64,000 bases of DNA from Amoebophrya sp. A120 (lineage: Eukaryota > Protista > Dinoflagellata). Each line of letters opens with the position of its first letter. Position 1 is the stretch's first letter. The translations under genes were made by a program, and so were the position numbers. The notes below the pieces were generated by a model. It was not told the origin of the DNA, did not search any database, and saw only the letters and a list, made by a program, of their open reading frames with translations. Of the stretch, positions 5,404-52,100 are shown piece after piece. The stretch spans positions 2,544,054-2,608,053 of the forward strand of contig CAJINV010000005.1 of the NCBI GenBank assembly GCA_905178155.1, given 5' to 3'.

Positions 5404-8400
5404 ATGATGTCGTCGACGACAGGAGGAGCAAAAAATCCAAACTTCCTGCGGACGACCGGCGCCAGCAGCCTTCGCCGCGCACCGGTTCCGCCCTCGAGCA
5501 CCAGCCGGGGGCTGGTACTTGTAAATGCGTACTTCTACATGTGGCGCTGTACTAGTACCACGCACGGCATGCACATCAAAGTGGACGACCACGACGCAGA
5601 CGCAGATATCTCCGCGAAGGTAGTTGCGCAACACCAACTAGTACCCGCGTCAGCATCTACTAGTAGCGCAACTTCATCAACGTCAAAAATAATCCACGAC
5701 ACGAAGCTGCTGCAGCAGACGCCGGAGGAGTGCATGTGCGTGAATTCGGGCCTGAATGCGGACCGTGTGAGTGACAGGTTCACCCCGGCACCCGAGGGGA
5801 TGCCGAACTATCCTGAGTAAAAACGTCCCCACACCAGAGTTGTCATGCAGATTTGCAATGACAGGAACAGAACATTTGTAATGCGCATCGCCAGGAGAGG
5901 CATTTTTAGTAGTGTTTTGGAATTTGTAATGCTGTAAACAGGATGAGCAAATGGATTTCTGACGCAGCTGGCCTTGCGAACCTGCGCTACACTACGGACT
6001 GCAACTTGTGATGCGTGACCCCCAAAAGTTCTAGGTTTGTGTTGCAAAATCCCCATCTTGACTCTGGTGTGGGGATGTTTTTACTCAGAATACGAACCAA
6101 ACGTGGTTCAGCACCACGGCTGACGCGAGTGGCAAGTATCCGGACTCGCCCTATATCAAATGCAAAAATGTCTGGGTCTGGAAGATTTCCAGGTTTGTCA
6201 TGCATATTTCGCATGAGCTATGATGCCTGTAATGCATGACCTAGCATGACAGATTTTTTGCGGGTATCTTGATGCCTATCCCGCATGACAAATGCCCTCT
6301 CCGCGGAGCAAAAACTGGACGCCTCTTGCTGCTCATGCAATACAGATATTTTTAGATTTCAAAAATAGCATCACAAGTTGCATTCTTCCAGACCCAGACA
6401 TTTTTGCAATCCATACCCTACGGCCAAGTATGATGTGAGAAAAATGTGTTACAGGCACACATTGGCTGGACCTTTACTTCATCAGCACAAACATTCTCTG
6501 CATGGCAGAGAAGTACTATAGATACTTGTAATGCAGCGATTCTTACAGATTGATCACAAGGAATTTTTATTGAGCATATTGTATGAAATTATATCTACAA
6601 CTAGGCTCGGGCTCCTGAGAGTATCCGGCATGACAGAACTTGTCTGTCTTGCTTGGCCTGCGTCGTAACACTCTTTTCTTCGCATAGGAAGTGTACACTG
6701 ACCAGTACGGGGGGCCCGCGGACTATCAAACAAAAGAAGTTCGTCACGCTTACTCATGCGCATTTGTTGGAACTCTCCGTCATGCGCAAGAACAATGCGT
6801 CAACGCAGTCAGACTCCATGGGCGATTTCATCCCTTGTGTTTGCGAAATAAGTTGTACAAGGAAAATAATTTCCTGTGAAGATGCCAGAAAAATCTCTGA
6901 TGCAAATAGACCTGCAAGTTCCTGTGATGAACCGTTTTTTCTCTCTTCCATACGGACTATGGGGAGTACTGTCGCGCGTGGGAAGACGAGTGCGCCTCGA
7001 TTGGGGGCAAGGCTGGCGAGTATGAAAGCCTCAGAATGGAAATCCTCAAAGTGGAAATAAGTAATTTGTGATGCATGAAATGCAAGGCAAAAAAGCCTGT
7101 ATTGCAGAGGACACAATTGAGGCCGACTATTGCCCTGCTAGGGGTGAAGAATTGGGCTGCTGATTAGCACGACAGGATGGCACCCCTTTGCCTAACTAGC
7201 ATGACAGGCACGTTTTGAGTGCCCAGGAAATTTGTCATGCGCCGACTACAATTGGCACTTTGACTGGAGTCGTTTTTTTGCATTACAAATTATTTCCAGT
7301 TTGAGGATTTCCAACCTGAGGCTTTCATAGCGAGACTTCCACGTGTGCAATCAGGGAGGAGGATTGCGGGACTGCTCTGGATACGAGGCCGGTTACCTGT
7401 ATGGAAGCGTCAGGTTTGAAATCGTCAGAGTTGAAATAATTTGCAATGCATAAGATGCAGGACCCGAGGCACGTGTGTTGCAGAGCAGGCAAGTGAGGCC
7501 GATTGTGAGCCTGTTTGGGGTTACAGCTCGAGCTGCTAAAGTAGCATGATGCAATCGCTCTTTTTTGCCTAAACAGCATGACAAACTGGATTTGGGGACC
7601 AGCGAAATTTGTCTTGCGCCACTTGAAAACTGGGTTCCAACTGGCATCCATTTTATGCATGACAAATTATTTCAACTTTGTCGATTTCAACTCTGACACA
7701 TCCATAACCTGCTCGAAGACCTGGTGCTACATCCGGACAAGCAGCGCGGTGAACGGCAACATCGCGAAAACGGACGCCATATGCATTCGCAAAAGTACTA
7801 TCGCACTCGTAATAAAAATCGCAGTCATGCAGGAGCATGACAAATCCAAGCTGTAACCTGAACTAGCATGACAAATTGAGTTTGTGTTCTTGCGAAAATT
7901 TGTAATGTGCTTCACATACTAGTGCAATACCAATACAACTTTTGCAATGCATACGACAATTTCCCGCCAGTGTGCTCCAACATCCCGGCGGCAAACCTGA
8001 CCGTCCAGAGCCGCGACAGCGTGCACCTGTTACGAATTGCAAAAGTATCGCACTAGTATAGCTTGCAATACCAATTGGCTCAGCATCACAAATTGAATTT
8101 GTAGTGCGGGTTTGCCATAGCACCTAGATTTGTAATGCATGGCCGCAATTAATAGTACTACTACTAGTACGATGCTTTTGCACAGGATGCCTGTGGTGGT
8201 CTTACGATTTCTGCACCACTACTACCACGACGACCACTTCTATGAAAGTGCACAACTCCCCGTCCCCCTCATTTGTCATGCCCAATATTGCTTACCAAGT
8301 CTAACACTCTGTGCCCCTTTGGAATGTTAGCATGACAGATTCTGGCAGGCCAAACACCACTACAATTCTGTGAAAATTTGTCATGCAAGAAAAGCTACAC

Positions 8401-9522
8401 TCTTGGTGCATGCCCTTCTTTTCTGTTCATGCAATACAAATGAGCGAGAGGGGGAGTACTAGTTGTGCACTGTTATAACTTCCACGTTGGCGGTTGAAAC
8501 TGTTTCCCCCAGCACCACCACCACCCCTGCGCCGGAGACGACACCTATCCTGAGCAAAAACGTCCCCACACCGTAGCCAAGATGGGGAAGCCGCTAGACA
8601 AATCAACAAGCCAATGATAAATTTGCCTTCGTAGTGTATTAATCCTGTTTAGCTACTTCAGCAGCGTCACAGATCTGGACTATCGTGCTGGGTGGAGCAT
8701 AACAAATACCGAAACACGACTAGAGCGTGTTGCACTCTCATGGGGCTTCGCATGAAAAGCATTTTTAGCATGCAGATTTGTACGTACAACTATGGAGAAG
8801 TGGGGACGTTTTCACAAAGGATAAGACCGAGTCCGGAGGAACTCGCCAAACTTCAAGCCGAGCTGCAGGCGGCCAGTATATGCATTGCAATATGTTTGGG
8901 TCTGAAAGAGTTTCGACTTCCATGCTAAGAGTCTGGTGCATACAAAAATCTGTCTTGCATGATATTACCATAAGCTGCACTCTTTTAATAAACCAACATG
9001 AGATGAGGGAGTTTCTCATGCAGGAGAGGCATGGCATATTAGTCTATGCCATGCCTCTCCTGCATGAGAAATTTGTCGTGCTAGGTCCACCTGCATTCCG
9101 GACCTGCTCATGGGGAATGGAAATTTTGCATGACAAGTTTGTATTCCACCTGCAGACCCAGACCTATTTGCATTTCATACGGTATGGGTGGCGACAGTAC
9201 CGCGAACGACACGAATACTACGGAGGAGCTCCTTCTAGCGTTACGGGGTGGAACAGGAAGATCCGCCGGCGATCACTCGGGGAGCACAACCACAACCACC
9301 GGTGGGAGCGGGGCGTCAACATCCACTGCTAGCACCGGCGGCGGCCACACCACTGACACTGAGGACGCTGCTGGCAAAAGTAGCGGTGCGCTTCTGCTGC
9401 AACAAACCAGGAGCGTGGAGGACGACGTCTCTGGTGGTGTTCACGATTCGTCTTCGAGCGGCGGGGGCTCCGACCACTTTGGCGGCGGCCAAGACCTCGC
9501 TGGTGGCTCCGGCTACTACTAG
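5404..9522 (+). CDS. Cys/Trp-rich secreted protein, paralogue 3, with 11 introners
   Basis: Removing 11 TA...TA elements plus one direct repeat each gives one continuous frame: ECMCVN...NQTWF...YGQVYTDQYGGPADYGEYCRAWEDEC...CSKTWCYIR...CSNI...LWWSYDFC-T-rich, then a G/S/T-rich tail to TAG 9522. Confidence 0.85.
5809..6092. mobile_element. Introner family A
   Basis: ~32-bp near-perfect TIR; DR CGAAC/CGAAC. Confidence 0.92.
6154..6415. mobile_element. Introner family B (TATCAAATGCAAAAATGTCTGGGTCTGGAA)
   Basis: DR CCCTA/CCCTA. Confidence 0.92.
6429..6686. mobile_element. Introner family I (TAT..GAGAAAAA.GTGTTAC)
   Basis: TIR like 29788-30007; DR CCAAG/GGAAG. Confidence 0.7.
6724..6952. mobile_element. 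Introner
   Basis: DR CGGAC/CGGAC; restores ADYGEYC. Confidence 0.85.
7021..7329. mobile_element. Introner family C (TATGAAAGCCTCAG..TGGAAATCCTCAAA)
   Basis: ~40-bp TIR; DR GCGAG/GCGAG. Confidence 0.92.
7400..7706. mobile_element. Introner family C2
   Basis: DR ACCTG/ACCTG. Confidence 0.9.
7780..7953. mobile_element. Introner family D (TATGCATTGCAAAAGTATCG)
   Basis: DR CGCCA/CGACA. Confidence 0.85.
8031..8189. mobile_element. Introner family D
   Basis: DR CCTGT/CCTGT. Confidence 0.85.
8241..8477. mobile_element. Introner family E
   Basis: DR ACTTC/ACTTC. Confidence 0.88.
8546..8823. mobile_element. Introner family A
   Basis: DR ACACC/AGACC. Confidence 0.85.
8879..9179. mobile_element. 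Introner family B
   Basis: DR CAGTA/CGGTA. Confidence 0.85.
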
Positions 9523-12244
9523 TTTTCGGGAATAAAAACGGATGGTGCCCTCGTCCAACTCCTGCCTGCTCGGGGCACCAGACGTCGAAAAACGTTCTCC
9601 TGAGTAGAAGGAGACGAAGAAATACGATAGAAAGCGACGTCGACGACAAACTTACGGCAGGACGAAATTGCTATCTTCGCGTATCAGTTCCAAAACAACT
9701 CGAAGTCGGCACGACTAGCAACAACACGACATGATCACGCCGGATGAAGTTCCTCGGCGGAGGATCATGGGCAAGGAGATTGTAGCCACACGAAGTGAAA
9801 CACTGGTAAACGAGGAGGACCCGCGTCCGGGCTCGGATGAAGATTGGCCGCGATAATTTCTTTCTGCCGGAGAGCAGCAAGGCAACACAGGAGGTGGTGG
9901 GCAGCACAGCCACAGATTTTGGTGAATATTAATGCTAGCAGTCTTGAAGAACTAATCTCGCACGGAGGTGGCCGGTAGGGGCGCAAGAATCTAAAGCAAA
10001 CCAAATATGACGAAACTTCTTCTACTGACCTCGTGCCGCCAGCCGCAATCGCAGTCGACGCCGAACACGAAGTGAAAGAGTTTTTCAACAGCATCTTCCC
10101 GAACACGAAGTGAAAGAGTCGTTCGGCGTTCGTGCCTTTCACGCTCACCGAGGAGTTCGTCCCCGGGCCAAGGTCGAGTAAGAAGAAGGACCGCGTTTTA
10201 AATAATACTGGCCTTCTTGCGGGAACGGAATTCGAATCTTTAGTGGGCGACGAAGATAAAAAGTACAACTACAACACCACCCGCTCCTACGTAGTGCGGG
10301 AAGGGGCACGAGCAGGATAAGAACAGTCCTGCAACCCAACCGGCGCGGGAAGAAGAGTCCTGGTGGGGAGCAAAGCCAAACGCGGAAGATGATCAGTTGT
10401 GTCGCATCAAGGACTCTACTTACGGCGGGGACGAGGACAACGGCACATGTTGCGGAAGGAAAATTTCGTCCATAAAGTGCTACCAATACCTGCTTCTTAC
10501 TGTATCTTTATGATGTAGATGAAGGTGTAGAAGGAAACGAAGTGCTCATGTAATATCTTCTCTACTTCAGTGAATATCAATATTCATCGAGACCACAGAT
10601 AAACTACGGCGTTTTTTTTTACGAGGATCATCTGAGGAACGATGAATCTCGACATTGTCTCAAATTCGTGCAGCAGCTCCGTGGCTTCCTTTGCCAAGCA
10701 AGATGACGCGAAGAAGCAGGAAGTAGTACCAGTCTCGTCGGTGGAAGTCATGGGCAGAGACGATTTAAAAAAAGTAGAAAATTCAAGTAGAGAATCGGGC
10801 TTCCGTAGCGGTTCGTGCGTTGAGGTGGCAATCAGGATAAGACTGCGGAATACATAAGAAGTTTTAGAAACTTCAAAAAAGCTAATTTGTTTGCCCAAGG
10901 TAAAGAATCAAAATCATTTGAAACAAAAAGAACGCTACTTAGTCGTAGGTTTCAGTCTCACGACACGAGAATAGAGCCCCTTCCCTGGGCTGCTTTCTTT
11001 GGACAGACTCACTGGCAGAGATAATGAGTACCACAGATTTTAATCCTGATGTTCTGTAGTTTTGACAACATACACGCCAACAAGTTGAGAGAAAAGCTGC
11101 TTGGTGTTTCAGAAATTGAATGTCGTTATGGTTAACGTTCAAATTCTTAGGCAGGTCTGTTTTCCCCCTTTTTTTTTTTCTTTTTTCTAGTCTGCGGAAC
11201 AGTAAAACGAAGTGCGTATCCTAGCTGCACTGGCAGCCGACCTTACGCGCACCATCAGAAGTGCGGAACTGGCCGGCCTTTGTGGTGTCTCACCATCAGA
11301 AGTGCGAACTACGGGGGCCGGGGCGTACAGCCTAAAGTTCTAAAAGTTCTAAAGTCCCATCGCGCGATAGATAGATAGATAACGCATAACGCATCAAAGT
11401 TGACCCCACAACTTTTTTTCTTAGGAATAATCATCGCGCACGAGTATGTATTCATTGAGGAGTGGAGAAGTGACAGGACACAAGCACGTGGACTTGGCAG
11501 GGATTACAACTGTGGGACAGCCAGCCACCAGGAGGATGAACAAGGAGAGGTGAGTGTATATGTGTAAATGCCTGGTGCATGTCTGATATATGCTCTGGTA
11601 TAGGAATGCTAGTTTCAGTTTGCAACGCTTTTGCGCTACGTTTGCTTTTCCACGTTGGTCCTGGGGTGCAGATGAGCGAGCGAACGAAGTTAGAATACGT
11701 GCAATATGTTCAATACATGCGTTTTTCCTCCGAAAGTAAAAGCGAGAGCCCCCCTTATAATTAGGTGTTTCCGTGTTGCGCTACACGATCAATGATTTTT
11801 TTAGGTGGCTGATTCTGATATTGTATAGGCAATTTGGCGCGTCGTTTTGTATTTCCCATTGGTGCGGTACGAAGATGAAGTGTGCTAGTAGTGTGCTACA
11901 CCGATTTAAAATTGTCGCTTTCATCTTCTGTGATTTTGCTCTTGCGCAGAAGCGTTGTGTCAACGCGACTTCAGCCGATGGCTCTAGAGAACTATCGACG
12001 ATTGGCAAGTATGTTGCGCACTCACTTTGTTGCGTCCTTCTTCCAGAAGTGGTCATGACCATCATTGTGAAAAAATCCAAAGGTCCTTCCTCATTCACAG
12101 ATGAAGAGGGAAAGAAGAATTTAAATTATTGAAAAAATTCAATTTTAACAGAAAATAGCCGTAGGGTTTGAGATATCTTCGAGAGAAAATAACGCTTCAT
12201 TTGTTGCGTGTGTTTTTCGCACCGCGGTGCAGAAACGGAGGAAA

Positions 12245-15200: not shown

Positions 15201-18200
15201 CAAGCCAACCAGTGAGACGAATGGCCTCGGGGTATGCATTGTAAGCATGTCCGAGTCTGGAAGAAGGCTTGTCATGGATGTCGTGCATGATTCGAGACTG
15301 TCTGATGCTTGTGGACGAAGAGATCCCCTTGCCTGTCATGCAAAATTGCAACCTGCCATACGGAATAAGTACGTGCCACATCATAGCCGACCAACGCCAA
15401 AGAAACGTTTGCCATCATTGGCATTCACTTTTGGCATAGCTACACCTCCTTAGACCCAAACATGTTTGCAGTTGAGACGGGGGGCCGCCGAACTACGGGG
15501 AGTACTGCGCAGCATGGGAGGACGAGTGCATGAACATTACCGGGCAGACCACGACGGGCAAGACGGGCAAGGCCGGGTCTTCGTACGGATGCCTCCCGGG
15601 CGAGCCACCTGCAGGGGGCGCATCCAAAGGAAAAGTTCCCTCTTCCCGTATCAAAGGGAAGCTTCTACTGCTGGATTTTCATACACAGGCCAGATTTGTC
15701 TTGCTGGAGATGACTCACTGGAGGCCCGTAGCGAGCCTGAGTACTAGAGAGGCTTTGGCATAGGCACTTAGCATGAAAAACGTTCCCGCTGTAGGGCCAG
15801 CAGCATCGGAAACCACGTGCATAATCCGGCGAAGCCCGTGGAGTTTCCTTCAAGAAGACGCAAATGCGCGGAGATGTACCTCACCAATATGGGGAGAGGG
15901 AATTTTTCCTCGCGATAGAGCGTGAAGGATGTGGACTACGCAGCGTCAGGGAACGTGAGTCGTACCATGTGCCCCGCTGCTCCACCGTCTCTCACGGGTG
16001 GTCTACCCGCGAGAAAAAAACTAGCACTATAGTGCCACATTTGTTGCACATGGTAGATAAAATTCAAATTATACATACTGGGTGGTCGTTCTGCTTCTGC
16101 CTTGCATAGCCTAATTATCAGCTCCACGCACACGAGGCATTTTTTGCACGCCCCCCCAGTCTCGTTTGATGATGATCACCAAGACCATGGTGCCGTGCTG
16201 GATTTTTTCTTTGTGACATGACACGAACGCTGTTGACCCCGCCAAACGGACTCCCAGCTGGTGCTACGCGCGGTGGTGCTACATCAAGTACTAAGCGGAT
16301 TTCCACATAAATGGATTGTGTGCGCCAGTTTAGTAAACTTCTTGCTCACCACGATCCTTTCTGTTTCCGGCACCTCCCAAAAAAACGCACCTATAAGCAG
16401 GATTGATGAGGTTCTTGCATCATTGGAAAAAAACTCAATCACAGTTCTTCTACTTCTACTTTCCCAACAAAATATTTCGCAGGGAAGTTGGAGCGAATGA
16501 CGGCGACATCGCGAAGCCCATCCCCACGGATGGCTCAGTATGCCGTGCAACAGTATCTTCGCGCTCTTTCTACTTGTTTTGTTGTATCTTCGAAAGACAC
16601 TATCTGTATCCAGGACAGCACAGCACGAGTAGAAAAGAAACGGATATCAATGCAATCGGACGAGAGCGACGAGTAGAAGTACTGTTGCGAGGCATAACCG
16701 CCCGTGACCCCGCCGAGCTGCACCAACTTGGACATAAACACGGACGTATCGACTGCAACGATGTCTGGATCTGGATGATTTAGCGGGAAGTTTGTCACGC
16801 CAGTCTGGCATCATGCCTCTGAGCGAAGCTTCTCGTGCGGAATAAGCAATACAATCACAGAGCCACGAGAAAAGCTGTCATGCTTGGGGTTGTAATAAAA
16901 CACTGCGCTTTATTGTTGTTCACTGATGGGGAAGGGGACGTGCACCACAACTTTCCAAACCCAGACATATTTGCAATGCATAGGACGACGGCTGGGGCAA
17001 CAAGCAGATGATCGAGTCCGGTTACGGCAACTTGAAAATGTGGTATAGACTTTGGTTTCCTGTTGTGTATAAAAGATTCCGAAGCAAAGACGTACACGTA
17101 CATCTACATGCACAACCCGCAATGCCCATGTTCAAGTTGAACGTGCTGAAAATCGTTCAATAGTTCGGGGCAGTTTTTGATTGTGGGGTTACCCCGGGCG
17201 TGTTGCGGTTGTTTCTTTGCTCCGAAAATGAGATCGCATATGGCCGGGTGTTTTTTCGCTGCATGATAGGCATGGGTGTGTCCTACCCCCGTGGTGTTAT
17301 GGATGTCTGTGTCTTTCGCGAGGATATGTTCCTCGTGTTTTTCGGATATTTGTATACGCTTTCGGTCCGAAGAGCATGATGGTTGAAAAATGTCAGCCAT
17401 CACGTTGTTCGGGATCGATGAGGAGCGTGTGAGGGTGACGTGGTTTCGGAACTCGGAAGAAGACCATCAAGATGTCGTCTAAGCCGGCACTTTGATGGTC
17501 CTGTCCGGACTTCTAATCACCTTCTAATTCTGCCGTCGAAATCCAATAGGAGCAAAATCCAAATGGATTTTGCACTACAAGGAAACTGGAAGCTCCCCAG
17601 ACATGTTCCGGGGAGCCGAATTGCCTCCGGATCTCGAAGAGAATGCGGGGAAAATTAAAAAGAAAAGATAGAAGTCAAATTCGACGGGATTTCAGAAGAC
17701 ATATTACGTACTACAAGCAACTTTAGGAGGAAAATTAAAAGGAAAATTAGAAGACATTCTAGAAGGCTAAATTATAAACATTTTGAAAAGGGGAAACTAG
17801 AAGGGGGTTTGAGAAGAAGAAACTAGAAGGGATTTTCAGACGGGCAAAATAGGAGTGGTGGTCCGGGGCACTATGGGAGGCCTTCGCCGTGTTTCCGCAT
17901 GTCTTGGTAGCGGCGGTGGCGAGGACAAATTTCGCTGATAGGGTGTTGTTTATTTTTGGGTCTTTGGGCAACTAGGGGTAGGGTGGGGAAGATTCGATTC
18001 CAAACATTGGAAGGTTTTTAGTTCGGCTTTGCCCGTCACTCGGGTGCTTTCTTTTCTGTTTGGGCGGGGCCTATCTTGTGTTCACCTTTGGGTAACCTAC
18101 TTTGCTGGGTCACTTTCTCCGGAATCGGGACCAGGGAAACACAAAAAACGAAACACCGGGAAAATTGACGAGCTTTTAGAAGTCAAGGCGGGGCGGGTGT

Positions 18201-18639
18201 TTCCCGGGTGGCAGCGTGCTGAAAAGCGTTCAAAAGAGGATAGAACGTAGCGCGACCAAAGCACGCGGATGTGGTGCGACAGACAGAGGAGTTACACTAA
18301 CACCTCTCACAGTCAGAAGTGGAGAACGCCAAGGTTGAAAAATCCGCTATGAAAATTTTTTGCACGTGGTTTCAAGAGAGAAGAGTAGCACATTGCTCTC
18401 TGAATGCTGCGTAGTTCTGCTCGTCATTCACCGAAAAGCTGCGCCTACCTTGTTCGGCGATGTGTGTCTTTTCGTCTTCATTTTCTTCCATTGACTCAGC
18501 GTTTAGAGACAGGGTTCTTGTAGCAAAACTCCTACTGACTATTCCTGTAATTTAAATCAGGTATTCGTACGCATTGTGCGACGCGCCGACCACAACTACC
18601 ACGCCCGCACCGGAAACGCCCGCACCGGCGCCGTACTAG
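12245..18639 (+). CDS. Cys/Trp-rich secreted protein, paralogue 4, with an acidic Ala/Asp/Thr-rich domain
   Basis: Signal-like MKVAPSGLALALAICGG; GT-AG introns (12299-12427, ~14375-14457, 16288-16482, 17043-18560) plus 9 introners. Motifs ECVCVN, NYGEYCAAWEDEC, PSWCYARWCYI, CTN, MWYSYALC; TAG 18637-18639. Confidence 0.75.
12459..12764. mobile_element. Old introner
   Basis: TIR TATCGAGAGAAAAC / GTTTTTCTCTCGCATA; DR decayed; frame restored. Confidence 0.6.
12816..13732. mobile_element. Enlarged introner (917 bp) with nested inserts
   Basis: ~35-bp TIR TATCCAGAAAAAAACACCCA..CCATCCATTTTC; DR GCTGA/ACTGC. Confidence 0.8.
12917..13044. repeat. ~128-bp imperfect foldback inside an introner
   Basis: GGATGATGTTTTTGCACCCGAC..TAAATATCGG..GACCCGTCC versus GGATGGGTC..CCGATATTTA..GTCGGGTGAAAAAACATCATCC. 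Confidence 0.7.
14529..14868. mobile_element. Introner family A
   Basis: DR GAGTG/AAGTG; restores ECVCVN. Confidence 0.82.
14950..15166. mobile_element. Introner family D with nested (GAT)n-tailed insert
   Basis: DR CCGAG/CCGCG. Confidence 0.8.
15233..15477. mobile_element. Introner family B
   Basis: DR CGGGG/CGGGG. Confidence 0.85.
15621..15917. mobile_element. Introner family F (..CCCTCCCCATATC)
   Basis: DR GGGCG/GAGCG. Confidence 0.75.
16004..16218. mobile_element. Old introner
   Basis: Partial TIR; DR decayed; frame restored. Confidence 0.55.
16539..16696. mobile_element. Introner
   Basis: TIR TATGCCGTGCAACAGTA / TACTGTTGCGAGGCATA; DR lost but removal of element + 5 nt keeps the frame. 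Confidence 0.7.
16747..16982. mobile_element. Introner family B
   Basis: DR GGACG/GGACG. Confidence 0.88.
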
Positions 18640-18705
18640 GAGACCACAACGACGACGACGGTGGCCGCGGAGACCACGACTTCTACGTAAGCAGGCACAA
18701 TGATG

Positions 18706-18980
18706 TATTCTAAGTAAAAACGCCACCGCGATCCCTTGTGATGATGCAATTTTGTGTGATCAACAGGAATAGTAGCACTCCGTTTTCCTCTGCAAAGCTT
18801 TCCTTTTCCTCAGAATGGTAACCACACGGCTCCGTGAACGTGAGGCGGGTGCCCTGCTTGCCAACCTGCGCTGCGCTACAGCCAGAAGCTTGTCATGTGC
18901 GATTCCCAAAAATTCTGTGCTTGTTTTGCAAAATCGTTTCACACTTGACTCGGGAGACGGGGACGTTTTTACAGAGGACA
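18706..18980. mobile_element. Family A element just downstream of paralogue 4 (putative 3' UTR)
   Basis: TATTCTAAGTAAAAACG ... GGGGACGTTTTTACAGAGGACA; no clear DR. Confidence 0.55.
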
Positions 18981-20695: not shown

Positions 20696-23551
20696 ATGCG
20701 GATCGCAGCCCTGGTCCTCGCGCTGGGAAAGACTGCAACCGCCGTAGGGCTACGGAAAATCCAGAACTTGGCGTCACGCCAAGCCAAGAATGATTTTGTT
20801 CACCGATCCGCCTCCGCGCTCGGGCAGGAACAAGCCGCAGAGGCGTGTATGTGTGTCAACGAGGGGTCCACAAAATTCACGGCGCCGATGGCTGACGGCA
20901 TGAACCAGGCCTGGTGGAATCCCGTCCGCGTAAACGACACCTACCAGGACACACCGTATGGACTGAACTTATGACACTCTCAAGTGTTACTTTCCCAGCT
21001 GTTACATGATTTGCCATGCAGAATGAGCATCAACGTCCACACGGTGAAGAGTTGCAAGCTCCGGCCTTTCCGTGTTGCCATTCTTGCGTCGCAAATTCAT
21101 GTAACGGCCGAGAGTGTAGCGATTGAGAATTCATAGCAGTACACGACCAAATATGGCGGTGTTGCGGATTACGGCGAATACTGCTATGGGTGGGAGTATG
21201 GAGGTGGCAGGATCGAAATCGACAAAATCGCAAAAAAATTCGATGCATATTAAAACAGATACCAGTTGGAGCCTCAGTTTCGGTTTCCAAGTGGCGCATG
21301 ACAAATTAAGTATTGGAGCACGAAGATCCAGCCTGTCACGCTGTTGGGGCAAAGAAGACTGCTTCTGTCGTTCTACTTTGGCAGCACATCGCCTGCCCCT
21401 AAACAGGCTTGCAACAATCGGCCTCATTTGCATGCTCCCCACCACAGGCCTTGCGTGCCCTACATTTTATGCATTACAAATTTTTCGACTTTGTCGATTT
21501 CGGCCTTGGCACTCCCATAGGGAGGACGAGTGCGACAGTGGGATCGCTGGACGGCGACCCAACTGCACGATCACATCCTATCGGACTGGCAAACGTTACA
21601 CTCCCAACTGTTACGCGATTTGTCATGCAGAATGAGCGTTTGCATCCACATGCACATGGTGAAGCCACTGCGCAGGAGGCGTGACAAATTTTGGAATGGG
21701 ATTCATCGAATTACAATTAGTAATGCATATGCAAGAGTTGCAGTAGGTTCCGGTCTTTCTCTTTCCCTTTTGCCATTCAAGTAGGCGATGTGGTACTAGT
21801 AAACGACGATAAGCGATGTGCGACGCTGCAGTGATAAAACTTCGAGATGCCGCTTGAAACGAACCGGAACCCAAACCCCTCCGCACGTGCCCCCCTAGTG
21901 CAGGATAAATGATGGCGATCATGATTCTTGCACGAAGAGGGGCGGCCCTTCTGGTTGTGTTTGTGGTCTCGGTCGGTTTAGCATCACAAATTCAAGTAAC
22001 AGTAGTTGGGCATGTAACATGTGAGAACTCCATACATTCCCGACCATGCAGTGTCCGGGGGTACGCATTGCAAATAGGACGTATGCAATACAAATTTCCC
22101 GTACATGTACAAGATGCATCACAGATTTCACCAATTGCAATTTCTTTGGAGTCTACTAACACCTGTCATGCTAAACCGGGATCGCAGCGGCCCAGGTTAG
22201 CGCGGTTTTGTCATACAGAGACCGCATTTGTAAGTGTGCGGGAAATTTCCAGTGGATAGGTCGTCTGGGTCCGAAACCACGAGAGCCGAACTTGTGATGC
22301 TCTCTGACCGTCAATCGAGCAAAAATCTGTCTTGTGTGAGTAGTACGTTTTTTTGATGCCACATGGACATTTTCACAGTTTTCCGTGCGTGATGCAGGCA
22401 TCTGGAGGCCTTCAGAAATAATTCTGCGATGCTAGTATGCTACTTGTGTCTTATTTCTGGGTCTCCTAGGGGAGGCAAAAACTACTGCACGGCATCAAAA
22501 ACTACAGCACGTTTCTCCAGACCCAGACAGAGACTTGCAGTTGATAGGAAGGAGGTGGGGGCAACGACATCCCAGGCGCGGTGCCGCCCGTGGACCCGAC
22601 CTGCCACATGAAGTGGTGCTACATCAAGATGGCGACACAAGGCAACGGCGACATCGCGAAAGCTGACGCGACTGCCGCACCGGTGTGCACCAACATTTTG
22701 GCGACAGTATCCTGTGCAATAGCTGTATCGAAGAACTCTTGGCGATTGCATTGATTTACGAGTTTGCTGAGCATGATGCTGACGAAGGAAGTAGCCCCTT
22801 CTGATGTGGAGGTTTATTGCGAGAAAAAATTGTCAACTTTTAGAAGTACATAATTGCAATTACTACGAGTACGGTGCTTTTGCAACACATAGACAGAGCT
22901 GAAGCCAGATACGGTCGGTGACAAGACCGTCTGGTATTCCTACTCCTACTGTTATACATTGCAAATGTGCAGCCTGGGTCTGGATTTGTGATGCAAGGTT
23001 TGAAGGACAAGGACATGGACAATAAGTTGTAGTGCATGGTGGAAGTAGGTAGGAGTGAGCAGCTTCATTTTTTGTCGTCCTGGCAGAGAGTTAGTGATTG
23101 TGTTTGTCATGCTGACGAGCACGATTGAACCCGCAAGATGCCAAGGAACACTTGGCAGGATGTTATGCCATACAAGGAAATCCTCTGGTATGCGTACTTA
23201 TGCAAGGACCAGCACGACAAATTATTGTTTGCATCTTCCCGATGAACGACCCAGACATCTTTTCCATTGATAACTGCACCACGACCACAACCACAACTAC
23301 CGTCACAACTACCACGACCATCGGCGCGCCTGTATGGATGAAAAAAGCACCAACACAACAATCACATTTTTGCGAGTTTTGGATCGGAAATCTGGCTGAT
23401 ACAACGACAAATTGCATTCTTGTTTTGCAGAACCATACAGGGAAACCACGTATGAAATTGACTGGGACGATACATTTTTATGCATGACACGGAAATTGCG
23501 CAAGGGTGACGGCGATGGTGTTTTTCTCTTGGACACCCTTCGGATCGATAA
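20696..23551 (+). CDS. Cys/Trp-rich secreted protein, paralogue 5
   Basis: Signal-like MRIAALVLALGKTATAVG; 7 introners (one with a nested copy). ACMCVNEG, NQAWWN, DYGEYCYGWEDEC, TCHMKWCYIK, CTNI, VWYSYSYC-T-rich; TAA 23549-23551. Confidence 0.85.
20970..21135. mobile_element. Introner family G
   Basis: DR GAACT/GCAGT. Confidence 0.78.
21197..21519. mobile_element. Introner family C2
   Basis: DR GGGAG/GGGAG; restores WEDEC. Confidence 0.9.
21579..22034. mobile_element. Introner family G with nested insert
   Basis: DR CATCC/CATTC. Confidence 0.8.
22062..22546. mobile_element. Introner family B hosting a nested family H element
   Basis: DR GGGGG/GGAAG; frame restored. Confidence 0.78.
22082..22258. 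mobile_element. Nested introner family H (TATGCAATACAAATTTCCCGTACA)
   Basis: DR GGACG/GGTCG; reverse complement of 61343-61493. Confidence 0.85.
22708..22891. mobile_element. Introner family D
   Basis: DR GACAG/GACAG. Confidence 0.85.
22953..23272. mobile_element. Introner family B
   Basis: DR ACTGT/ACTGC. Confidence 0.85.
23333..23535. mobile_element. Introner
   Basis: DR GCCTG/CCCTT; partial TIR. Confidence 0.6.
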
Positions 23552-25033: not shown

Positions 25034-25669
25034 TGGTAATCATCCCTAATATCCCAGAATTAGGATCAGTTGCAGACCTTGAAGATATTGGCAATGCATA
25101 TCCCGGCCTATGAAAGCCTCAGGTTGGAAATCCTCAAAGTGGAAATAATTTGCAATGCAAAAAAACGACTCCAGTTGAAGTGCCATTTGTAGTCGGCGCA
25201 TGACAAATTTCCCGGGCACTCAAAACGTGTCTGTCATGCTACTTAGACAAAGGGGTGTCCTTCTGTCGTGCTAATCAGCAGCCCAATTCTTCACCCCTAG
25301 CAGGACAATAGTCGGCCTCCATTGTGTCCTATGCAATACAGTGTTTTTTGCCTGGCATTTCATGCATCACAAATTATTTCCACGTTGAGGATTTCCATTC
25401 TGAGGCTTTCATACGGCCTCGGCGTCAACATCAGGAACGACGACCATCTATCCTGTGCAAAAGTATCGTATTCGTACAAATGCAGGTCTGGCATTACAAA
25501 TCATTTTCTTAAAGGCAAATCCGCATTACAAATGTTATTTCTCATGCTGAGAAAATTTGTAATGCATTTATACGAATACGATACTTTTGCAGTTCATACC
25601 ATCAGAAGCTGGATGCGTCTCTATGGCGAGGAAAAAATCATATCTTCTCTCGTGCTCGTCCCTTCTACA
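25034..25669 (+). CDS. Internal exons of a hypothetical protein
   Basis: Removing introners 25109-25413 and 25449-25598 opens a + frame: VIIPNIPELGSVADLEDIGNAYPGLGVNIRNDDHQKLDASLWRGKNHIFSRARPFY. Gene ends not resolved. Confidence 0.45.
25109..25413. mobile_element. Introner family C (opposite orientation to 7021 and 46126)
   Basis: DR CGGCC/CGGCC. Confidence 0.92.
25449..25598. mobile_element. Introner family D
   Basis: DR CCATC/CCATC. Confidence 0.88.
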
Positions 25670-36140: not shown

Positions 36141-37607
36141 ATGGACCTCTCCCGCATTCGTGTTATCAGCTTGGACGTGACAGGCACCCTGCTCCGTCAC
36201 CGCCACCCGATTTTCGAAACCTACGCGCGGGCCCTCGCCTGGGCGAAGTTTCCGAGGCTGGCAACCCCTGAGGAATTGCGACCGGCGTTCAAAAAGGCCT
36301 ACAAGAAGACCTGTCTGGACCTTCCGTGCTTCGGCCACGCTGCTGCCTTGAGTTCCCGCGAGTGGTGGCGGAGATGCGTGGAAACCTGCCTCGCAGAGGT
36401 GGGAATGCGAAAAAATATCGACTATACGGTATCCTGTTGAAAAACGTTACCGCCCCAGAGTTCTTGTCATGCAGATTTGCGATTACCCCAAAAATGCGTG
36501 CATTTGCATTCCCAGTCGTGTTTTGGCATTTGTGATGCTGCAAACACGATGGACAGATGGATTGTAATGCGGTTGCCCTTGCTAACATGCACTACTCTAC
36601 GGAGAAGTGCAACTTGTCATGTGTGCTGGCTCCCAAAGCCAAAACTTTTGGATTTGTGTTGCTAAGTTCTCAACTTGACCAGGGGCTGCTGGGGACGTTT
36701 TTGCACATGATACACGGACGCCGAGTTCAACCGTTTCTTCCGCCGCGTGTACCAGCACTACGGCTCTGCGGACGGGTACGCGCACATGTCTGACGCCGTG
36801 CCGTTTCTAAAATGGGCTGCTGGGTGTGCGAGGGCAACATCAAAATTATCAAAGCGGCAAGATGAGCATGAGCAAGGGCCTGTACTAAACAGAAGTACAA
36901 CCAGGTCCTCCTCGTCTCCGGCGACGCAACTGCCGCACCAAGAAAGAGCCTACTACAAAAACCCGGCGTTCCTTCTCGGTGTGACAACGAATACACCAAA
37001 ACGGACGATGGAGAGCGTGCTGCCCGTCATGGGGTTGCACGAGTTTTTCCACTTTTTCGTCTGCAGCCAGGACGTCGGCGCGGAAAAGCCGGACTGCGGG
37101 ATTTACGAGGAAGCCGAGAACCAGATGAAGTTCTGGCTGGGACGAACCGTGAAACCAGAGGAAATATTGCACATCGGGAACAACGTCATTCCGGATTTTC
37201 TCGCGCCGGCCTTGAACCATCAGTGGAAAGCGCTGTATTTAGATCGTAGCGGGGATGCAAATGTGACGGTGTGCCAGGATTGGCTGGAATTCGAGAAGAA
37301 AGAAAACAGAAGAAACAAAGACTCGACATCTTCGCTTGGTGGAGGTGGTGCCGGAGTGAGAAGCGATGCACGCAGTTGCAGTGTGGATCAGCATGAGATT
37401 GAAAAACTGCTACCAGCGTGCACGGTAAAAAGCTTTGAGGAGGTGAAAGACCGACTTCTGCTGGTGGCCCAGCCAGAACTACTAGAAGGGGAAGTAGGAA
37501 ACGAAAAGAGTGGTCGCGCATTTTTTACGTCTGGTTTCCAACGTGATTTCATCATGGTGCGTTTGCTGCGGAAAAAAAAAGTGATGTATGCTGTTCTTGC
37601 CTGTTAG
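36141..37607 (+). CDS. HAD-superfamily hydrolase (HDHD3/REG-2-like)
   Basis: Motif I ISLDVTGTL, GVTTN, GAEKPD, ILHIGN; one introner (36430-36712) whose removal joins DYT-DAEFNRFFRRVYQHYG. Start and end approximate. Confidence 0.8.
36430..36712. mobile_element. Introner family A
   Basis: DR TACGG/CACGG. Confidence 0.85.
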
Positions 37608-45107: not shown

Positions 45108-48100
45108 ATGGCTTCTGTAGCTGTCCAGCTGCACTTTCTGCTTGCGCTACTGGCTCTCTATCGCCTTGGTGCAGCAGCCACTACTAGTACCGCCACTCCC
45201 TGTACTCGACCTCTTGCCAATTCCGCAACCATTCCCGGGTTCTGCGCCCAGGTTTTCGCGGATAATCTGGACAAAGCCCGAGGTTTGTTCATCACGGAGA
45301 ACAACCACATTCTACTGATCGAACGCGGTATATGGGAGTGTCTGGATTGAAGTCGTCAAAGTTGAAATGATTTCTCATACATAAAATGCGACGCAGAAAG
45401 TGACTCCATTGCAGAGGCCGCACGGGAGACAGATTATAGCCCTGCTAAGGGTCAAAAGTTGGACTGCTGACTAGCATGACAGAAGGTAGCTCTTTTGCCC
45501 TAAACCGCAAGACAGACTCGCTTCCAGGACGGGGGAAATTTGTCATGCGCCGACTACAAACTGTAGGTCTAACACTAACTGGCATCGATTTTATGCATCG
45601 CAAATTATTTCAACTACTCTGGCGGTTTCGATCCTGACACTTCCATACGGCAACGGGAAGTCGCAGGTGACAGCCCTCTTCGACGACGACAACGATTTCA
45701 TTGCGGAAACCAGAGTCACCCTCGCGTCCACGACAGATCTCGGCGGCGCGACGGACCGAAACTACATGCTCCACCACGGGCTCGCCGTGAAAGACAATTA
45801 CCTGTACGCCTCTAGCTCCGCCTTCGTGTACCGGTGGCCCTATACCGACGGACAGCGGACGGAAATTCCGCCCTCCAGTCGGGAAATCGTCGTGAAAAAC
45901 ATCAACGCGGACGGGCAGGGCGGCGCGCCGTTGGGGCACTGGACCCGGACCCTGGTGTTTTCCGAGGATGGGTACTTGTACGTGTCCGTGGGGTCCAACG
46001 GGAACGTCGACGCCGATTCGTATCGCAGCAGAATCCGGAGGTTCCCCTCGAAGTTTGACGCGAATGGAAACGCAGTACCTCTTGTCCCTGGAACATCGAA
46101 GCCGATGGACGCACTCCCCGCTGGCTATGAAAGCCACAGAAAAATGGAAATTCTTAAAGTGGAAATAATTTGTGATGCATGAAATGCGACACCAAGAAGA
46201 CTGTGCTGCAGAGAACGCAATGGAGGCCGACAATTGATGTGCTACGGGTTCACAATTGGACTGCTCATTAGCACGAGAGAAGGGCACCCCTTTGCCCTAA
46301 CTAGCATGACAGACACGCTTTGAGTGCCCGGTAAATTTGTCATGCGCCGACTAGAAACGGCGCTTCGACTGGAGTCGTTTTTTTGCATCGCAAATTATTT
46401 CCACTTGTTTGAGGATCTCCATTCTGAGGCTTTCATACTGGCGGGTGGGATTTCACCTCAGCGGAGGTTTTCGCAGACGGCCTGCGGAACGAGGTTGGGT
46501 TAACAGAATGAAAAATGCCCCCTCCCCATATCGAAAAGATAAGTTGTGATGCTGTTTTTTGACCACAAATCGACCTGCATTGCTAGAAGGCCAAGAGACG
46601 CAGCTGTTCCCTCGTTTGCAGGCAATTTGTCACGCTGTTTCCCGTGTCCAGTACCAGTTGGGTTGCTTCCTGTCATGCTGAAGACGCAAGGCTTTCCCGC
46701 GCCAGCTAGCACTACAATCCGCATCTCTTCCCTCTTAGCATGACAAAGCTGATCTGTGGCCACAAATCTGCATCACAGATTTCCGCTTTGATATGGGGAG
46801 GGGGGGCTTTTCTTCTTGATGCGGGTTGGCGTTCGACCAAGACGAAGTGCTGTATGGGGTGGAGAATATGCATTGCAAAAGTATCGTACTAGTAGTAATT
46901 CATTGCATTACAAATTTGCTTAGAGCATTACAAATGAAATTCGTAATGCTGTTTTATCTTAGACAGGAGATTTGTCATGCATAAAGAGCAATTACTAGGA
47001 GTACGATACTTTTGCAGAGCATAGAGAACTCCGCCGACCAATTGGTCCGGGCGGACCTCGGTGGGGACATCCACAATGAGAATCCTTACGCATTGCAAAA
47101 AAATCGTACTAGTAGAAATCGCATGACAAATTCCCTCAGCTTGAAAAATGGAATCTGTAATGCTGTTATAGCTTACGAAGTCGATTTGTCATGCATAAAA
47201 CCGGAATTAGTACGCGTGCGATTATACTTTTGCAATGCATAATCCGGGGGAGGAGTTGAACCGGTTCCCGGAAAAGGGCTCCGACCCGTCCGTCGACGGG
47301 AAAAATCGCCACTACGGCTATCCGTACTGCTTTACGGAGTACAAAATCCCCGCGGTCATGTCCCAGCCGGCCGGGACAACCAGAGGAAGGGTTTTCGCCT
47401 GGCCGTCGTTCATGCCGACTTATACGGATTCTTGGTGCAGGCAAAACACCGTGCCACCACACGTGGCGTTGCAAGCACACTCCGCGCCTCTGGGAGTGAC
47501 GTTTTTACGGAGGAAAGATCTGGATGCGAACATTGACAGCGTGCAGCAGCAGCAAGTGAATCCTCAAAATCCTCTTCCACCTCAGCAGAATTACGGCTTG
47601 CCGCTATCTGTTTTCGAGCACGACGCCTTTATCGCGTACCACGGGTCCTGGAACCGAGATGCGCCCACGGGGTACAAAGTGGTGTGGCAGAAATTCGACA
47701 AGACGACGAAGTTGCCGAAGAAGACCCACACGCTTTCCGTGAATTCGGCCGACGAGCCTGTGGATTTGCTGTGGCGCGACAATCCGGTTAGCAACGGCTG
47801 GAAGTGGCCGAACGGGTACCGACCTGTGGATGTGAAGTTTGACCGATTTGCGCGGCTCTTCGTGACTAGTGACGGGACGACGAATGTGAATGGGGGGAGC
47901 AATCTGGTCGTGTTACTGTATTATGGAAATGATACCACTACAATTGGAGCTACAATTTCTTCGAGTTCGGGTGTTGATGTTGCAGCTAGTAGTGTACAGA
48001 ATGATCCTGGCTCGTCGTCGTCGCCGCAGATAAGTAGTGCGCGGGGTGGTCTTCGTTCATCTCGTGCAGGGGATGGCTGGACCGTGGCCTGGTCTTCACA

Positions 48101-48206
48101 TCTGTTGGTCCTCATGTTGATGACGACCAACTACATGGCCTGTACCCTCCTTTTTCCAACTTCATTGAGTGGAAATGCTTGGGGCGATAGGGATAGAAGT
48201 CTCTGA
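45108..48206 (+). CDS. Secreted glucose/sorbosone dehydrogenase-family beta-propeller protein (PQQ-dependent type)
   Basis: Signal peptide; HWTRTL, LYVSVGSNGNVD, FADGLRNEVGLAFD, DIHNENPGEELN, YGYPYC, AHSAPLG, AYHGSWNR, RPVDVKFD, LFVTSD; hydrophobic C-terminus; 5 introners. Confidence 0.88.
45331..45647. mobile_element. Introner family C2
   Basis: DR CGGTA/CGGCA. Confidence 0.88.
46126..46437. mobile_element. Introner family C
   Basis: DR CTGGC/CTGGC. Confidence 0.92.
46501..46821. mobile_element. Introner family F
   Basis: DR TGGGT/CGGGT; restores NEVGLAFD. Confidence 0.85.
46867..47023. mobile_element. Introner family D
   Basis: DR GAGAA/GAGAA. Confidence 0.9.
47087..47241. mobile_element. 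Introner family D
   Basis: DR ATCCT/ATCCG; restores NENPGEELN. Confidence 0.9.
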
Positions 48207-49164: not shown

Positions 49165-52100
49165 ATGTCGCTGTGCTCCCTTGCGTTCTTAGGTGTGCTC
49201 GTGTCGTCTTCGCGTGTACAAGCGGCGGCGTTGCACGATACAACTAGTAAGGTGGCGGCAGATCATGATCATCGTTGGACGGGTAGCGAAGATGGCCGCG
49301 CACAGCTCTTTGATCCCCGTACTTATCAGGAGCTTATCCTGAGTAAAAACGTACCCACACCAGAGTCAGGATGGGGATTTTGCAACACAAACCTAGGAGC
49401 TTTGTGAGTCACGCATGACAAGTTGCACACTGCAGTGTAGTGCAGGTTAGCAAGTGCAGCCGCATCACAGATTCATCTGCTCATCCTGTTCACAGCATCA
49501 CAAATTCCAAAACGCGATTGGAAATGGCTCTCATGGGGATGCGCATTACAAGTCTTCCTGTCTTTGCAAATCTGCATTACAACTCTGGCGTGGGTACGTT
49601 TTTACTCAGGATAGAGCTCCAGACATATTTTTCTGAGGACCAGGCACGCCAGATTCTTTATCAAATGCAAAAATGTTTGGGTCTGGAAGATTTTGAGATT
49701 TGTCATGCTTTTCTGACATGACTCAAGAATCTGTGATGCATGGGCGCGAAGCGGTCCGCTTTTCTGTCATGCAAACACGCAGTTTGCCATGCGGAACACG
49801 CAACACATAGGAGCCCAAAAAATTTGTCATGCTTGGCTCCGTATTGCAGTGGAACTCTCGTTCACTTTTAGCATCACAAGTTTCCAGACCCAGACATTTT
49901 TACATTTGATATTCTTGGTGGAGGGTTCAAACCTCATGACGATCCATCGGGTGGAGACGATGTTGGCGATCCGAGCCGGTGTTTTGCCCGCCCGGAGCAG
50001 CTTCTCATGGCAGCTACTGACGCGTGTCGGTACAAAGATTCAATATTTTTATTTTGCCATCTTCAACCATATTGATGCTTTCTCTTTCATTTCCGAGCTG
50101 CGCTCCTTCATGCGCCTTCTTTTCATGGTCTCCGTTCGTACATGCAGCACAGAAAATATATGTAAGTATGCTGTTTGTGTTTCACGACCTGTCTTTCAAA
50201 TTTCCGCATGGTATCTATGATCACAGGTTTGGCCAGCTGCGTACTTCTTCCGCCCGGAGAGCGGAAGGCCTGGACGACCCTCGCAAACTGCACTGCCTGC
50301 AAGCCTGGGCGGCCTGGAAAGCTCCGCAAATGGAGGGTCGCACAGCTTCAGATTCTTCTGCTTCAAGGGAACTGCAACAACGTCGACGCGGGCTGTTCGG
50401 TTCCTGCCCGTGCCGCAACTCCACGCGCCTGACCCCGGCCGAACAGCAAGCAGCTAGGAGAAAGAAACTCGACGCAGATCGCGCCGCTTTGTATGCGGAT
50501 TTCTTCGCCGCAGATATGTGGGGCGCTCTGCACACACCCTTCTTGCCCGGGTGCTATCCGAGAGCGGATTTTGCAACGCTGGATGCAGCTAAAGCTTCTG
50601 GAAATCTGAATTATTTCCCTTACGTTGAAGAAGGACGCAAATTGGTACACCCCGACGAAGTGAAGGCTCTGTTGGACGACAGCCACGAGCAGCAGGGCGG
50701 CGCCGGCTGCGATATGGGAACCACAACTGGCACTGAAAATCTAGAGGCATCAAGCGCCGCCAAGGTGGGCCACGCCTTGGCCACCTCGCACATCTCGCTC
50801 ATCCCAGACGCGGGCTACAACCTCGGAGTCGGGAAGGAGGACATCACAAAAGCTGTGGACAAGATTCTACCCGGCTCTGCGGGACGAGAGCGGGTCCTAC
50901 AACCGCAGGAAAAGCAGCAACCGAAAGGAGCAGATCCAGATTTGAAGAAAAAGCAGGAGAAAGAGCAGAAGGAGGAAAGGCGCAAATACGTGCGCACGTT
51001 CCTCGCTGAACCGCTGATGAAAGATTTTCTTCTCAACAGACAAGAGCTGTACCAATACCACGATGACGACGAAGAGACGGGAGAAGCAGCCGAACAAAGT
51101 GCGAAAAAGAAGGCGGAGCAAGGTCCCTACACGCTGCTCGACCTGGAGGAGTCCGAGCACGACCCGTTTGAATTTTTTCTCGTGCTGAATTACACGAGTA
51201 ACGCCTTTTTCCACACTGGTTTCCGCGTCGTGGTGTACGAGCGGCCTGATGGTGGCGCCGCCGCCGGTGGAATTGGCCCATCTGGGGCGGGTGGAGGAGG
51301 ACAAGCGGGACAGCCGCAGCGGCAGCCTCAAGAGGGGCTGCAAGCATCTATGAGCAGCAGACCTCAAGTAGAACATCAACATCATCCCTTCTATCTGGTG
51401 AACAATTATCCCTTTTGGGTGCGCGAAATGCTCTTCTGGGAAAACACGATGGCAAACGCGACTACACCGGCCACGGCAGGAGGAGGTACTGCTGCTCCAA
51501 AGGCGACGCCTCCCCCACCGCCCTCCAAGTCGGAACAGTTACAACAAAAATATTCGTGGGCCGCGCAACCATGTCTGTTGAGTAAGGAAGGCGTGGTGGA
51601 TAAAACGAATCCTCTTGCAAGAGAACTGTTCCCAGTCGTCCTGCAACACGGACAGGAAGTCGTGTGGGAAAAGACGTCAAACAAGCGAGACGCTGTCCCC
51701 GCCCCGGTCGGGTCCTCAGCTGCACAGGCGACGTTGCGCAAAGCGACCTTCTGGGGATTCCAGGACGATGTGACCTCAATCGCGCAGTGGCTGGGCCGCG
51801 GATTGTGTAGCTTCGATCTGTTCGTTTATGGTCGCACCAAGTCGGATATGCAAGACGAGAAGGACTGTCCGCGGCTGGTAGAGATGATGCAGAATGCGGA
51901 TGCAGTAGCGAACGGCGGGGCGGTTTCTGTTTCATCTGCTGCTCCGTCTGGAACAACTGCAGCAGCAGGAGGTGCTGCGCCCCGCGTTGGTGAAGCAGGT
52001 GGAACAGACCAAGCTGCGCAACCTGACGATGAAAGCAAAGCTGGACGTAAGGACCGAACGAAAAAATTGCTGCGTTGGTTTTTGGGTGGAAAAAATACAA

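Follow-up and report, generated by a model that had tools for sequence, protein, structure and literature searches.

How can copies of one mobile intron be removed from transcripts if they lie in both orientations within genes of the same strand? The question is raised by a stretch of 64,000 nucleotides (nt) of the dinoflagellate Amoebophrya sp. A120, a marine parasite (GenBank assembly GCA_905178155.1, contig CAJINV010000005.1, positions 2,544,054 to 2,608,053 of the forward strand). We call this whole stretch the window; it is rich in introners, i.e., introns built like transposable elements. An earlier note, made from the letters alone, had claimed that introner families sit in both orientations inside plus-strand genes and that their removal must rely on symmetric information, namely the hairpin of the terminal inverted repeats (TIRs) and inverted subterminal motifs. 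We found that both orientations are indeed removed, and that the cut has one asymmetric register, in which the intron takes in 1 nt in front of the left TIR and 4 nt behind the right TIR (-1/+4).

Using TIR scans, RNA joints and database proteins, we delimited 57 introners of 150-485 nt (median 258 nt), which together occupy 14,878 of the 64,000 bases (23% of the window). The left end reads TAT in 47 of the 57 elements and the right end reads ATA in 47. A flanking 5-nt direct repeat, or target-site duplication (TSD), with four or five matching positions accompanies 43 of them. According to column counts over 49 elements, the inverted repeat (IR) consists of TAT, seven variable nucleotides and a run of A. 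The text of PMC7789003 describes A120 introners in the same way (IRs beginning with TAT, then 7 nt and an A-run; direct repeats of 3-5 nt); the elements of the window fit that definition and are the published Amoebophrya A120 introners. They are MITE-like (similar to miniature inverted-repeat transposable elements), have the ends TAT...ATA and duplicate 5 nt of target sequence. RNA support, either contig joints or spliced lengths, is available for 27 of the 57. The organism is corroborated by a search with the exon that starts the gene, at 5401: it found one protein of 421 aa, P0001, which shows 100% identity with the product of the spliced gene of the window and is named Amoebophrya sp. A120 by its sources. 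Young element copies have very high summed contig depth in the genome-like contig set X1, a figure of depth and not of copy number. A search of Rfam gave no match.

The text of PMC7789003 also ascribes to A120 introners non-canonical boundaries, a predicted hairpin and a mean non-canonical intron (NCI) length of 240 nt. It reports U2, U4, U5 and U6 as present and U1 as undetected in A120, puts non-canonical introns at more than 60% of all Amoebophrya introns and leaves the route of their removal open. Its legends describe splice positions as variable or unknown, with IRs 1-5 nt away from the splice sites. The A120 introners listed in PMC12130899 include a TIR family with Copia/Gypsy homology.

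The elements that carry the argument are the following; below they are denoted by their first position, and the strand is the orientation of the element.

5809..6092, plus: family A introner in the reference orientation; TSD CGAAC; the -1/+4 rule gives an intron 5808-6096; removed in RNA contigs with an exact length match.
8546..8823, minus: family A introner that shares its gene with 5809; its interior is more diverged, at about 60% identity; removed in RNA contigs.
18706..18980, plus: diverged family A copy with a fully decayed TSD (0/5); unambiguous RNA joint 18704>18985 at -1/+4.
36430..36712, plus: family A copy inside a HAD-hydrolase gene.
49335..49613, minus: family A introner; TIR 20/20, TSD GAGCT; plus-strand host from the ATG at 49165; splicing predicted from the frame.
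7021..7329, plus: family C introner; TSD GCGAG; removed, by length match.
7400..7706, plus: family C introner of a second subgroup; removed, by length match.
21197..21519, minus: family C introner, 71% identical to the reverse complement of 7400; direct RNA joint 21191>21520; host on the plus strand (protein P0005).
25109..25413, minus: family C introner; TSD CGGCC; a micro-exon of 3 nt (25105-25107) is predicted in front of it; the database model P0003 begins within it.
45331..45647, plus: family C introner; direct RNA joint 45329>45652 with 1-nt ambiguity, a joint not found in X1.
46126..46437, plus: family C introner in a TrAA12-like gene; direct RNA joint 46120>46438.
22082..22258, plus: family E introner that lies within another introner, in the left TIR of the latter.
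22062..22546, no strand assigned: outer family-B-like introner that contains 22082-22258; the entire 490-nt intron is missing from protein P0005.
61343..61493, minus: family E introner in the reverse orientation of 22082, within a plus-strand frame of 4439 codons.
6154..6415, plus: family B1 introner, 82% identical to the reverse complement of 53342-53603.
53342..53603, minus: family B1 introner; if it is retained, the frame drops from 4439 to 1030 codons.

The pairs of opposite copies named by the earlier note were recovered by self-BLAST. The element 5809-6092 matches the reverse complement of 49335-49613 with 84.2% identity over 285 nt (E 7e-85). Likewise, 25109-25413 is the reverse complement of 7021-7329 (92.6%, E 8e-129) and of 46126-46437 (85.3%), and 22082-22261 matches that of 61340-61493 with 73.3%. 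We then scored the interiors, with 25 nt of TIR cut off each end, in the opposite and in the same orientation. The scores were 309 and 17 for 5809-49335, 426 and 46 for 7021-25109, 355 and 43 for 25109-46126, and 84 and -12 for 22082-61343, against a shuffled null of -47 ± 15 (maximum -17, n=87). Thus the interiors align only in the opposite orientation, even without the TIRs, and the matches are not a TIR effect. Multiple alignments of families A and C were made in a common orientation.

Interior scores place 5809, 18706 and 36430 of family A against 8546 and 49335, and 7021, 7400, 45331 and 46126 of family C against 21197 and 25109. The same division is seen in B1 (6154 and 30159 against 53342), D (8031, 46867 and 47087 against 25449), E (22082 against 61343) and, more weakly, F (15621 and 31448 against 46501). 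The tally leaves out 2872, 14529, 7780 and most copies of families B and D, whose signal is too weak. Families A and C therefore do occur in both orientations within plus-strand genes, with the host strand of 49335 and 25109 being a prediction of frame modelling. For 22082 and 61343 the reverse-complement relation stands, with one correction: 22082 lies not in a coding frame but inside the left TIR of the introner 22062-22546.

Two host genes enter the argument.

5404..9519, plus: host gene with 11 introners; its 421-aa spliced product is P0001.
45108..48206, plus: TrAA12-like host gene, 603 aa once its five introners are removed; there is an RNA joint for each of the five.

Removal from transcripts was assessed on X3 and X4, unstranded contigs that, like X5 and X6, are guessed to be RNA. 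They look like mRNA: two GT-AG introns are skipped, and 50-62 kb is left uncovered, a part in which X1 has an even depth of about 25. The comparison with X3 and X4 covered the window outside 22.4-44.9 kb, the part that holds 25109 and 36430. The first comparison listed 15 of 53 joints (11 at TIRs, two GT-AG, one between copies and one other), the second 15 of 93 (five at TIRs and ten cross-copy joints in X1). The raw-read runs X9 and X10 gave matches to element ends only.

If 11 elements with 5 nt each are subtracted from 5297-10902, 2753 nt remain, which is exactly the length of record 10 of X4; the same subtraction from 5332-10847 leaves 2663 nt, exactly the length of record 2 of X3. By this length match, one assembled transcript loses family A copies of both orientations, 5809 and 8546. 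For family C, the direct joints given above span a minus copy (21197) as well as two plus copies (45331 and 46126). Each removal takes the element plus 5 nt and restores the host sequence. We conclude that both orientations are removed from plus-strand transcripts.

A different account would be that one orientation stays unspliced, that the hosts lie on opposite strands, or that the elements are cut from DNA. Its support is that 49335 and 61343 belong to a gene without X3/X4 cover and that P0003 begins inside 25109. Against this, the minus copies 8546 and 21197 are missing from spliced contigs. The hosts are on the plus strand: P0001, P0002, P0003, P0004, P0005 and P0007 all map onto plus exons; Pfam TrAA12 matches lie in two plus exons of the gene around 46126 and HAD matches on either side of 36430; and frame models agree. 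In particular, removal of 53059, 53342 and 61343 leaves a stop-free plus-strand frame of 4439 codons (50021-64000), which is cut to 1025, 1030 or 3608 codons by retaining any one of them. A modelled gene at 25109 consists of a signal-peptide-like exon, the introner 24855-25100, a 3-nt exon and the introner 25109, and would continue in frame with P0003. Finally, X1 has a depth of 0 at 5/5 splice joints and runs into the elements, so the joints are not DNA deletions in X1. This account is extremely improbable. The splicing of the named minus copies 49335, 25109 and 61343 is itself predicted from frame models.

We turn now to the position of the cut. Along with 18706, three old introners have unambiguous joints.

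3770..4118, no strand assigned: TSD 1/5; compensated TAC/GTA ends; unambiguous RNA joint 3768>4123 at -1/+4.
16004..16218, no strand assigned: unambiguous RNA joint at -1/+4; the intron ends are CT..AC.
16539..16696, no strand assigned: unambiguous RNA joint at -1/+4; the intron ends are GT..CG.

An intron start 1 nt before the left TIR with an end 4 nt after the right TIR fits 16/16 of the TIR joints listed; the offsets 0, 2, 3, 4 and 5 fit 11, 8, 8, 7 and 6 of these 16. Four joints (3768, 16002, 16537 and 18704) are unambiguous, and just 0-2 of the 5 TSD positions agree there. The direct repeat is decayed at these joints and therefore does not set the cut; a TSD-defined cut was rejected because the register is kept where the TSD is decayed. 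Some element boundaries had been taken from the joints themselves, hence we also used a boundary-free test based on the best pairing diagonal. It gave a 3-nt excess of the 3' over the 5' overhang at 4/4 unambiguous and 6/8 low-ambiguity joints, and a sum of 107 pairs for the 3-nt excess, the next best being 63. Database proteins permit offset 1 at every resolved TIR junction and, as annotations, fix the offset at 33669 and 34159.

The four joints also bear on the idea that the joints are reverse-transcriptase jumps over hairpins between direct repeats, the elements staying in the mRNA. Strong hairpins flanked by 5-nt direct repeats are a known setting for such jumps, and the library type of the contigs is unrecorded. 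Yet the same register is held by four joints without any direct repeat, and the Pfam domains TrAA12 and HAD continue across elements. Moreover, a retained element would truncate the 421-aa open reading frame (ORF) of P0001, which is shortened by retention of any single one of its introners (11/11). We hold reverse-transcriptase jumps to be very unlikely.

The account that fares worst is ordinary splicing at GT-AG or GC-AG, for which TIR and TSD would provide the sites, as they do in the introners of Aureococcus and Polarella. Flanks of the form G-TAT...AG are available in 8/57 elements, and for the joint 3768>4123 a reading from protein only would also permit a GT/GC-AG cut. However, a GT-AG cut is impossible at 15/15 joints checked, and the joint 3768 reads TT..GA. 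The boundary bases are arbitrary: GT and AG occur at the -1/+4 register in 0/57 elements, and the +1/-1 bases form all 16 combinations. Where G-TAT...AG was available and RNA could decide (6429, 7021, 16747, 18706 and 21197), the element+5 and not the element+2 was lost in 5/5 cases; a GT-AG cut using the element+2 was rejected on this ground. Ordinary splicing is thus largely refuted by the joints already, and we give it next to no credence.

Does the register belong to the element or to the transcript? The mirrored cut is excluded by RNA for the plus copy 18706. For the minus copy 8546, whose imperfect TSD permits the test, the mirrored cut (offset 4) is excluded by P0001 only. The register follows the direction of the transcript and not that of the element, a result resting partly on one annotation. 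We expect with good confidence that the base-independent -1/+4 register holds genome-wide for the TAT class.

These results divide the mechanism claimed in the earlier note. The elements are introners, both orientations are removed, and an end-to-end duplex is predicted by folding for 51/57 elements (z < -2) and 0/3 GT-AG controls, one of which was off by 1 nt. That removal must rely on symmetric information finds no support in this form: the cut is asymmetric (1 nt at the 5' side, 4 nt at the 3' side) and goes with the direction of the transcript, and the changes tolerated at one end differ from those at the other. Nor is the exact subterminal motif required. The motif GCATNACA and its reverse are enriched, with 108 of 116 hits within elements, which make up 23% of the window, and are mirror-placed; the exact motif is absent from 8/27 RNA-supported elements, and a need for it was rejected since these eight lack any copy. 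The motifs may be transposase or host-factor sites.

We propose that A120 introners are excised by a spliceosome lacking U1, with the end hairpin as a bridge and cuts at fixed offsets; to our mind the chances of this proposal are even. The elements would insert by DDE-type DNA transposition, for which orientation would be irrelevant. The TIRs would make both ends interchangeable, and every insertion would supply the same signals to the pre-mRNA: at the 5' end N-U-A-Y, which resembles the GTAY donors of the genome save for a free +1, and towards the 3' end an A at -7 preceded by U-rich sequence at -19 to -15. The paired arms would hold the ends together, replacing U1 and cross-intron bridging, and distance from the TIR end, perhaps from a branch A at -7, would set the 3' cut. 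Symmetry would lie in the element and the reading would be directional. Since TIRs give the same ends either way, a directional machinery meets no paradox.

The ends of the elements are in keeping with such signals. The 5' end reads N-U-A-Y, 4/4 GT-AG introns examined start with GTAY, and the single change at +2 gives GC. The A at -7, after a U-rich tract, is kept in 56/57 elements. Over the 57 elements there are 1, 1 and 8 changes at +2, +3 and +4, and 1, 6 and 3 changes at -7, -6 and -5, i.e., the decay is not mirror-symmetric (Fisher p=0.005, post hoc on 20 changes).

The main rival to a U1-less spliceosome accepts the same elements and the same -1/+4 register, and assigns the cut to a non-spliceosomal nuclease-ligase that would recognise the stem and cut at fixed spacers, as proposed for Euglena. 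The lack of a boundary dinucleotide rule, the neglect of available GT-AG in 5/5 cases, the duplex predicted in 51/57 and the lack of a U2 branch context all favour it. In the A120 elements, as in the Euglena code N3CDG...CH'GN5-6|R given in PMC12501133, the triplets are paired and the spacer is short on the 5' side and longer on the 3' side. On the other hand, U+2 and A+3 are conserved at the 5' end and +4 varies, as in GTAY donors, and the one change at +2 gives GC. Changes of the terminal triplets are mostly uncompensated (one compensated case, TAC/GTA, among 15 changed elements), and a purine begins the next exon in just 28/57 elements, so there is no purine preference such as that of Euglena. 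On balance we consider the nuclease-ligase possible but doubtful.

Several points weigh against our reading of a U1-less spliceosome that removes both orientations at one register. There is no unambiguous RNA joint among minus copies, where the support is one annotated protein. The contigs of X3 and X4 are unstranded and only guessed to be RNA, and their cover is missing over 49-62 kb (49335, 49659, 53059, 53342 and 61343), so that they give no evidence either way on the splicing of 49335 and 61343. A significant end duplex is lacking in the predictions for 6/57 elements, and the terminal TAT:ATA triplets are predicted to be paired (P>0.5) in just 30/57. The asymmetry of end decay, post hoc as it is, could reflect strand-biased mutation. 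The bases before A-7 are off the U2 branch consensus (-9 is T in 22/57). Lastly, known spliceosomes need +1/-1 pairing, and the introners have no rule for these two bases.

The nested pair shows how the end duplex might matter. In 22062-22546 the left TIR is interrupted after 19 nt by 22082-22258. Deletion of this inner element in silico restores the predicted end duplex of the outer element (from -7.0 to -23.4 kcal/mol), which suggests that the pair is removed inside-out. Taken together, we tentatively suggest a distinct A120 splicing code, N-U-A-Y ... U-tract ... A-Y-R-N4, without a fixed boundary base. In it, the inverted ends of the transposon would replace U1 and AG, a branch A at -7 would set the 3' cut by distance, and copies would be excised without a scar in either orientation, nested ones inside-out.

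The genes around the introners offer further observations. In positions 1-35300, at least seven paralogous genes form a tandem array; their products are Cys-rich, seem to be secreted, share motifs like CVCVNEG and DYGEYCxxWEDEC and have Thr-rich tails, and no function was found for them. Introner positions differ between the copies examined, and the array thus lends itself to a natural test of intron gain. When part of P0001 was used as a query for paralogs, the sole match was P0001 itself. The database model P0003 (24806-31133) begins inside 25109 and runs into the element 30833; removing 24855, 25109 and 30833 from this gene yields a signal-peptide-like start and the WYSY-C-Thr-rich end of the family. 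Adjoining introners can leave micro-exons between them, of 3 nt (25105-25107, predicted) and of 8 nt (6420-6427, in RNA contigs and P0001). From 49165 to 64000 runs a very large plus-strand gene, of at least about 4500 aa and open at the window end; three of its exons at 50-64 kb had no Pfam match, and a protein search with the first exon at 49165 found none. A metagenome scan found 13 distant TrAA12-like loci.

A family F element at 31448-31768 seems to follow the stop codon of a gene whose end is near 31133, and may be in an untranslated region or intergenic; such copies outside coding sequence would be neutral controls. The 917 nt at 12816-13732 have 19/20 terminal complementarity of the TAT...ATA type and no TSD, contain a 63-nt hairpin (12917-13044) and could be a longer related element. 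A joint at 11218-11354, seen in X3 and X4, skips 135 nt with 8 other letters between and maybe comes from another locus. Besides these, we observed an 81-nt inverted repeat in a long intron (27200-27409) and a 15-nt coding tandem repeat (60479-60638).

Removal of the element with 5 nt restores the host sequence, and therefore exon insertions are nearly harmless in either orientation; for this reason 57 copies can sit in 64 kb. A single register, the same whatever the orientation, the boundary bases or the identity of the TSD, makes A120 intron removal directly testable, and the fact that it ignores GT-AG likely points to an unusual splicing rule. The register would also correct gene models, as P0003 misses at least two such introns.

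That introners work in either orientation is already known from Aureococcus and Polarella, and for TIR transposons the occurrence of both orientations is by itself to be expected. What is new, and can be tested, is the fixed, base-independent -1/+4 register. Among known systems the closest are the A120 introners of Farhat et al. 2021 (PMC7789003), from the same organism, with the same TAT IRs, direct repeats, non-canonical boundaries and hairpin; the mean NCI length there is 240 nt and the median here 258 nt. The text and legends of that paper do not treat orientation within the host and give variable positions, whereas here one offset fits 16/16 joints listed. A literature search that included its text and supplement turned up nothing on the orientation of A120 introners, nor any mention of one fixed cut position; figures 3, 4, S19 and S23, subscription papers and bioRxiv supplements lay outside the search and may hold either. 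Elsewhere, PMC9860276 allows for opposite-orientation pairs in its search, and PMC12130899, which lists A120 introners, required similarity in the same orientation. For another Amoebophrya, PMC12005148 describes mainly GT-AG introns and a U1 that is present.

The introners of Aureococcus anophagefferens and Polarella glacialis are likewise DNA transposons with TIRs and TSDs that form introns in either orientation. The text of 10.1101/2020.10.14.339549 reports for several classes in Polarella that introns are created either way, and cites the same for Aureococcus, with sites that start with G and end with AG. The window shares the either-orientation introns (families A and C) and lacks the G(T/C/A)...AG sites. 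In those species GT/GC/GA and AG sites come from TIR or TSD, whereas in A120 the boundary bases are arbitrary, available GT-AG is ignored and the U2-type boundary GT/GC-AG occurs in 0/57 at the observed register.

The introns of Fritillaria borealis derived from MITEs, as summarised in PMC11282704, a review of these intron cases, are also TIR/TSD introns and go with an altered spliceosome; they prefer AG-AC and AG-AT boundaries, and A120 prefers none. The nonconventional introns of euglenids, as described in passages of PMC12501133 and PMC11282704, resemble those of A120 in being MITE-like, in having paired terminal triplets at fixed spacers and slidable junctions, in lacking GT-AG and in lying side by side with GT-AG introns. 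The Euglena code was defined in PMC12501133 by discarding slidable introns, the same logic as used here. The lineage is unrelated and the code differs: in euglenids the triplets are CAG/CTG, the spacers measure 3 and 5-6, and a purine follows the intron, whereas A120 has TAT/ATA, spacers of 1 and 4 and no purine bias, i.e., N1-TAT ... ATA-N4 and not N3-CDG ... CH'G-N5-6|R.

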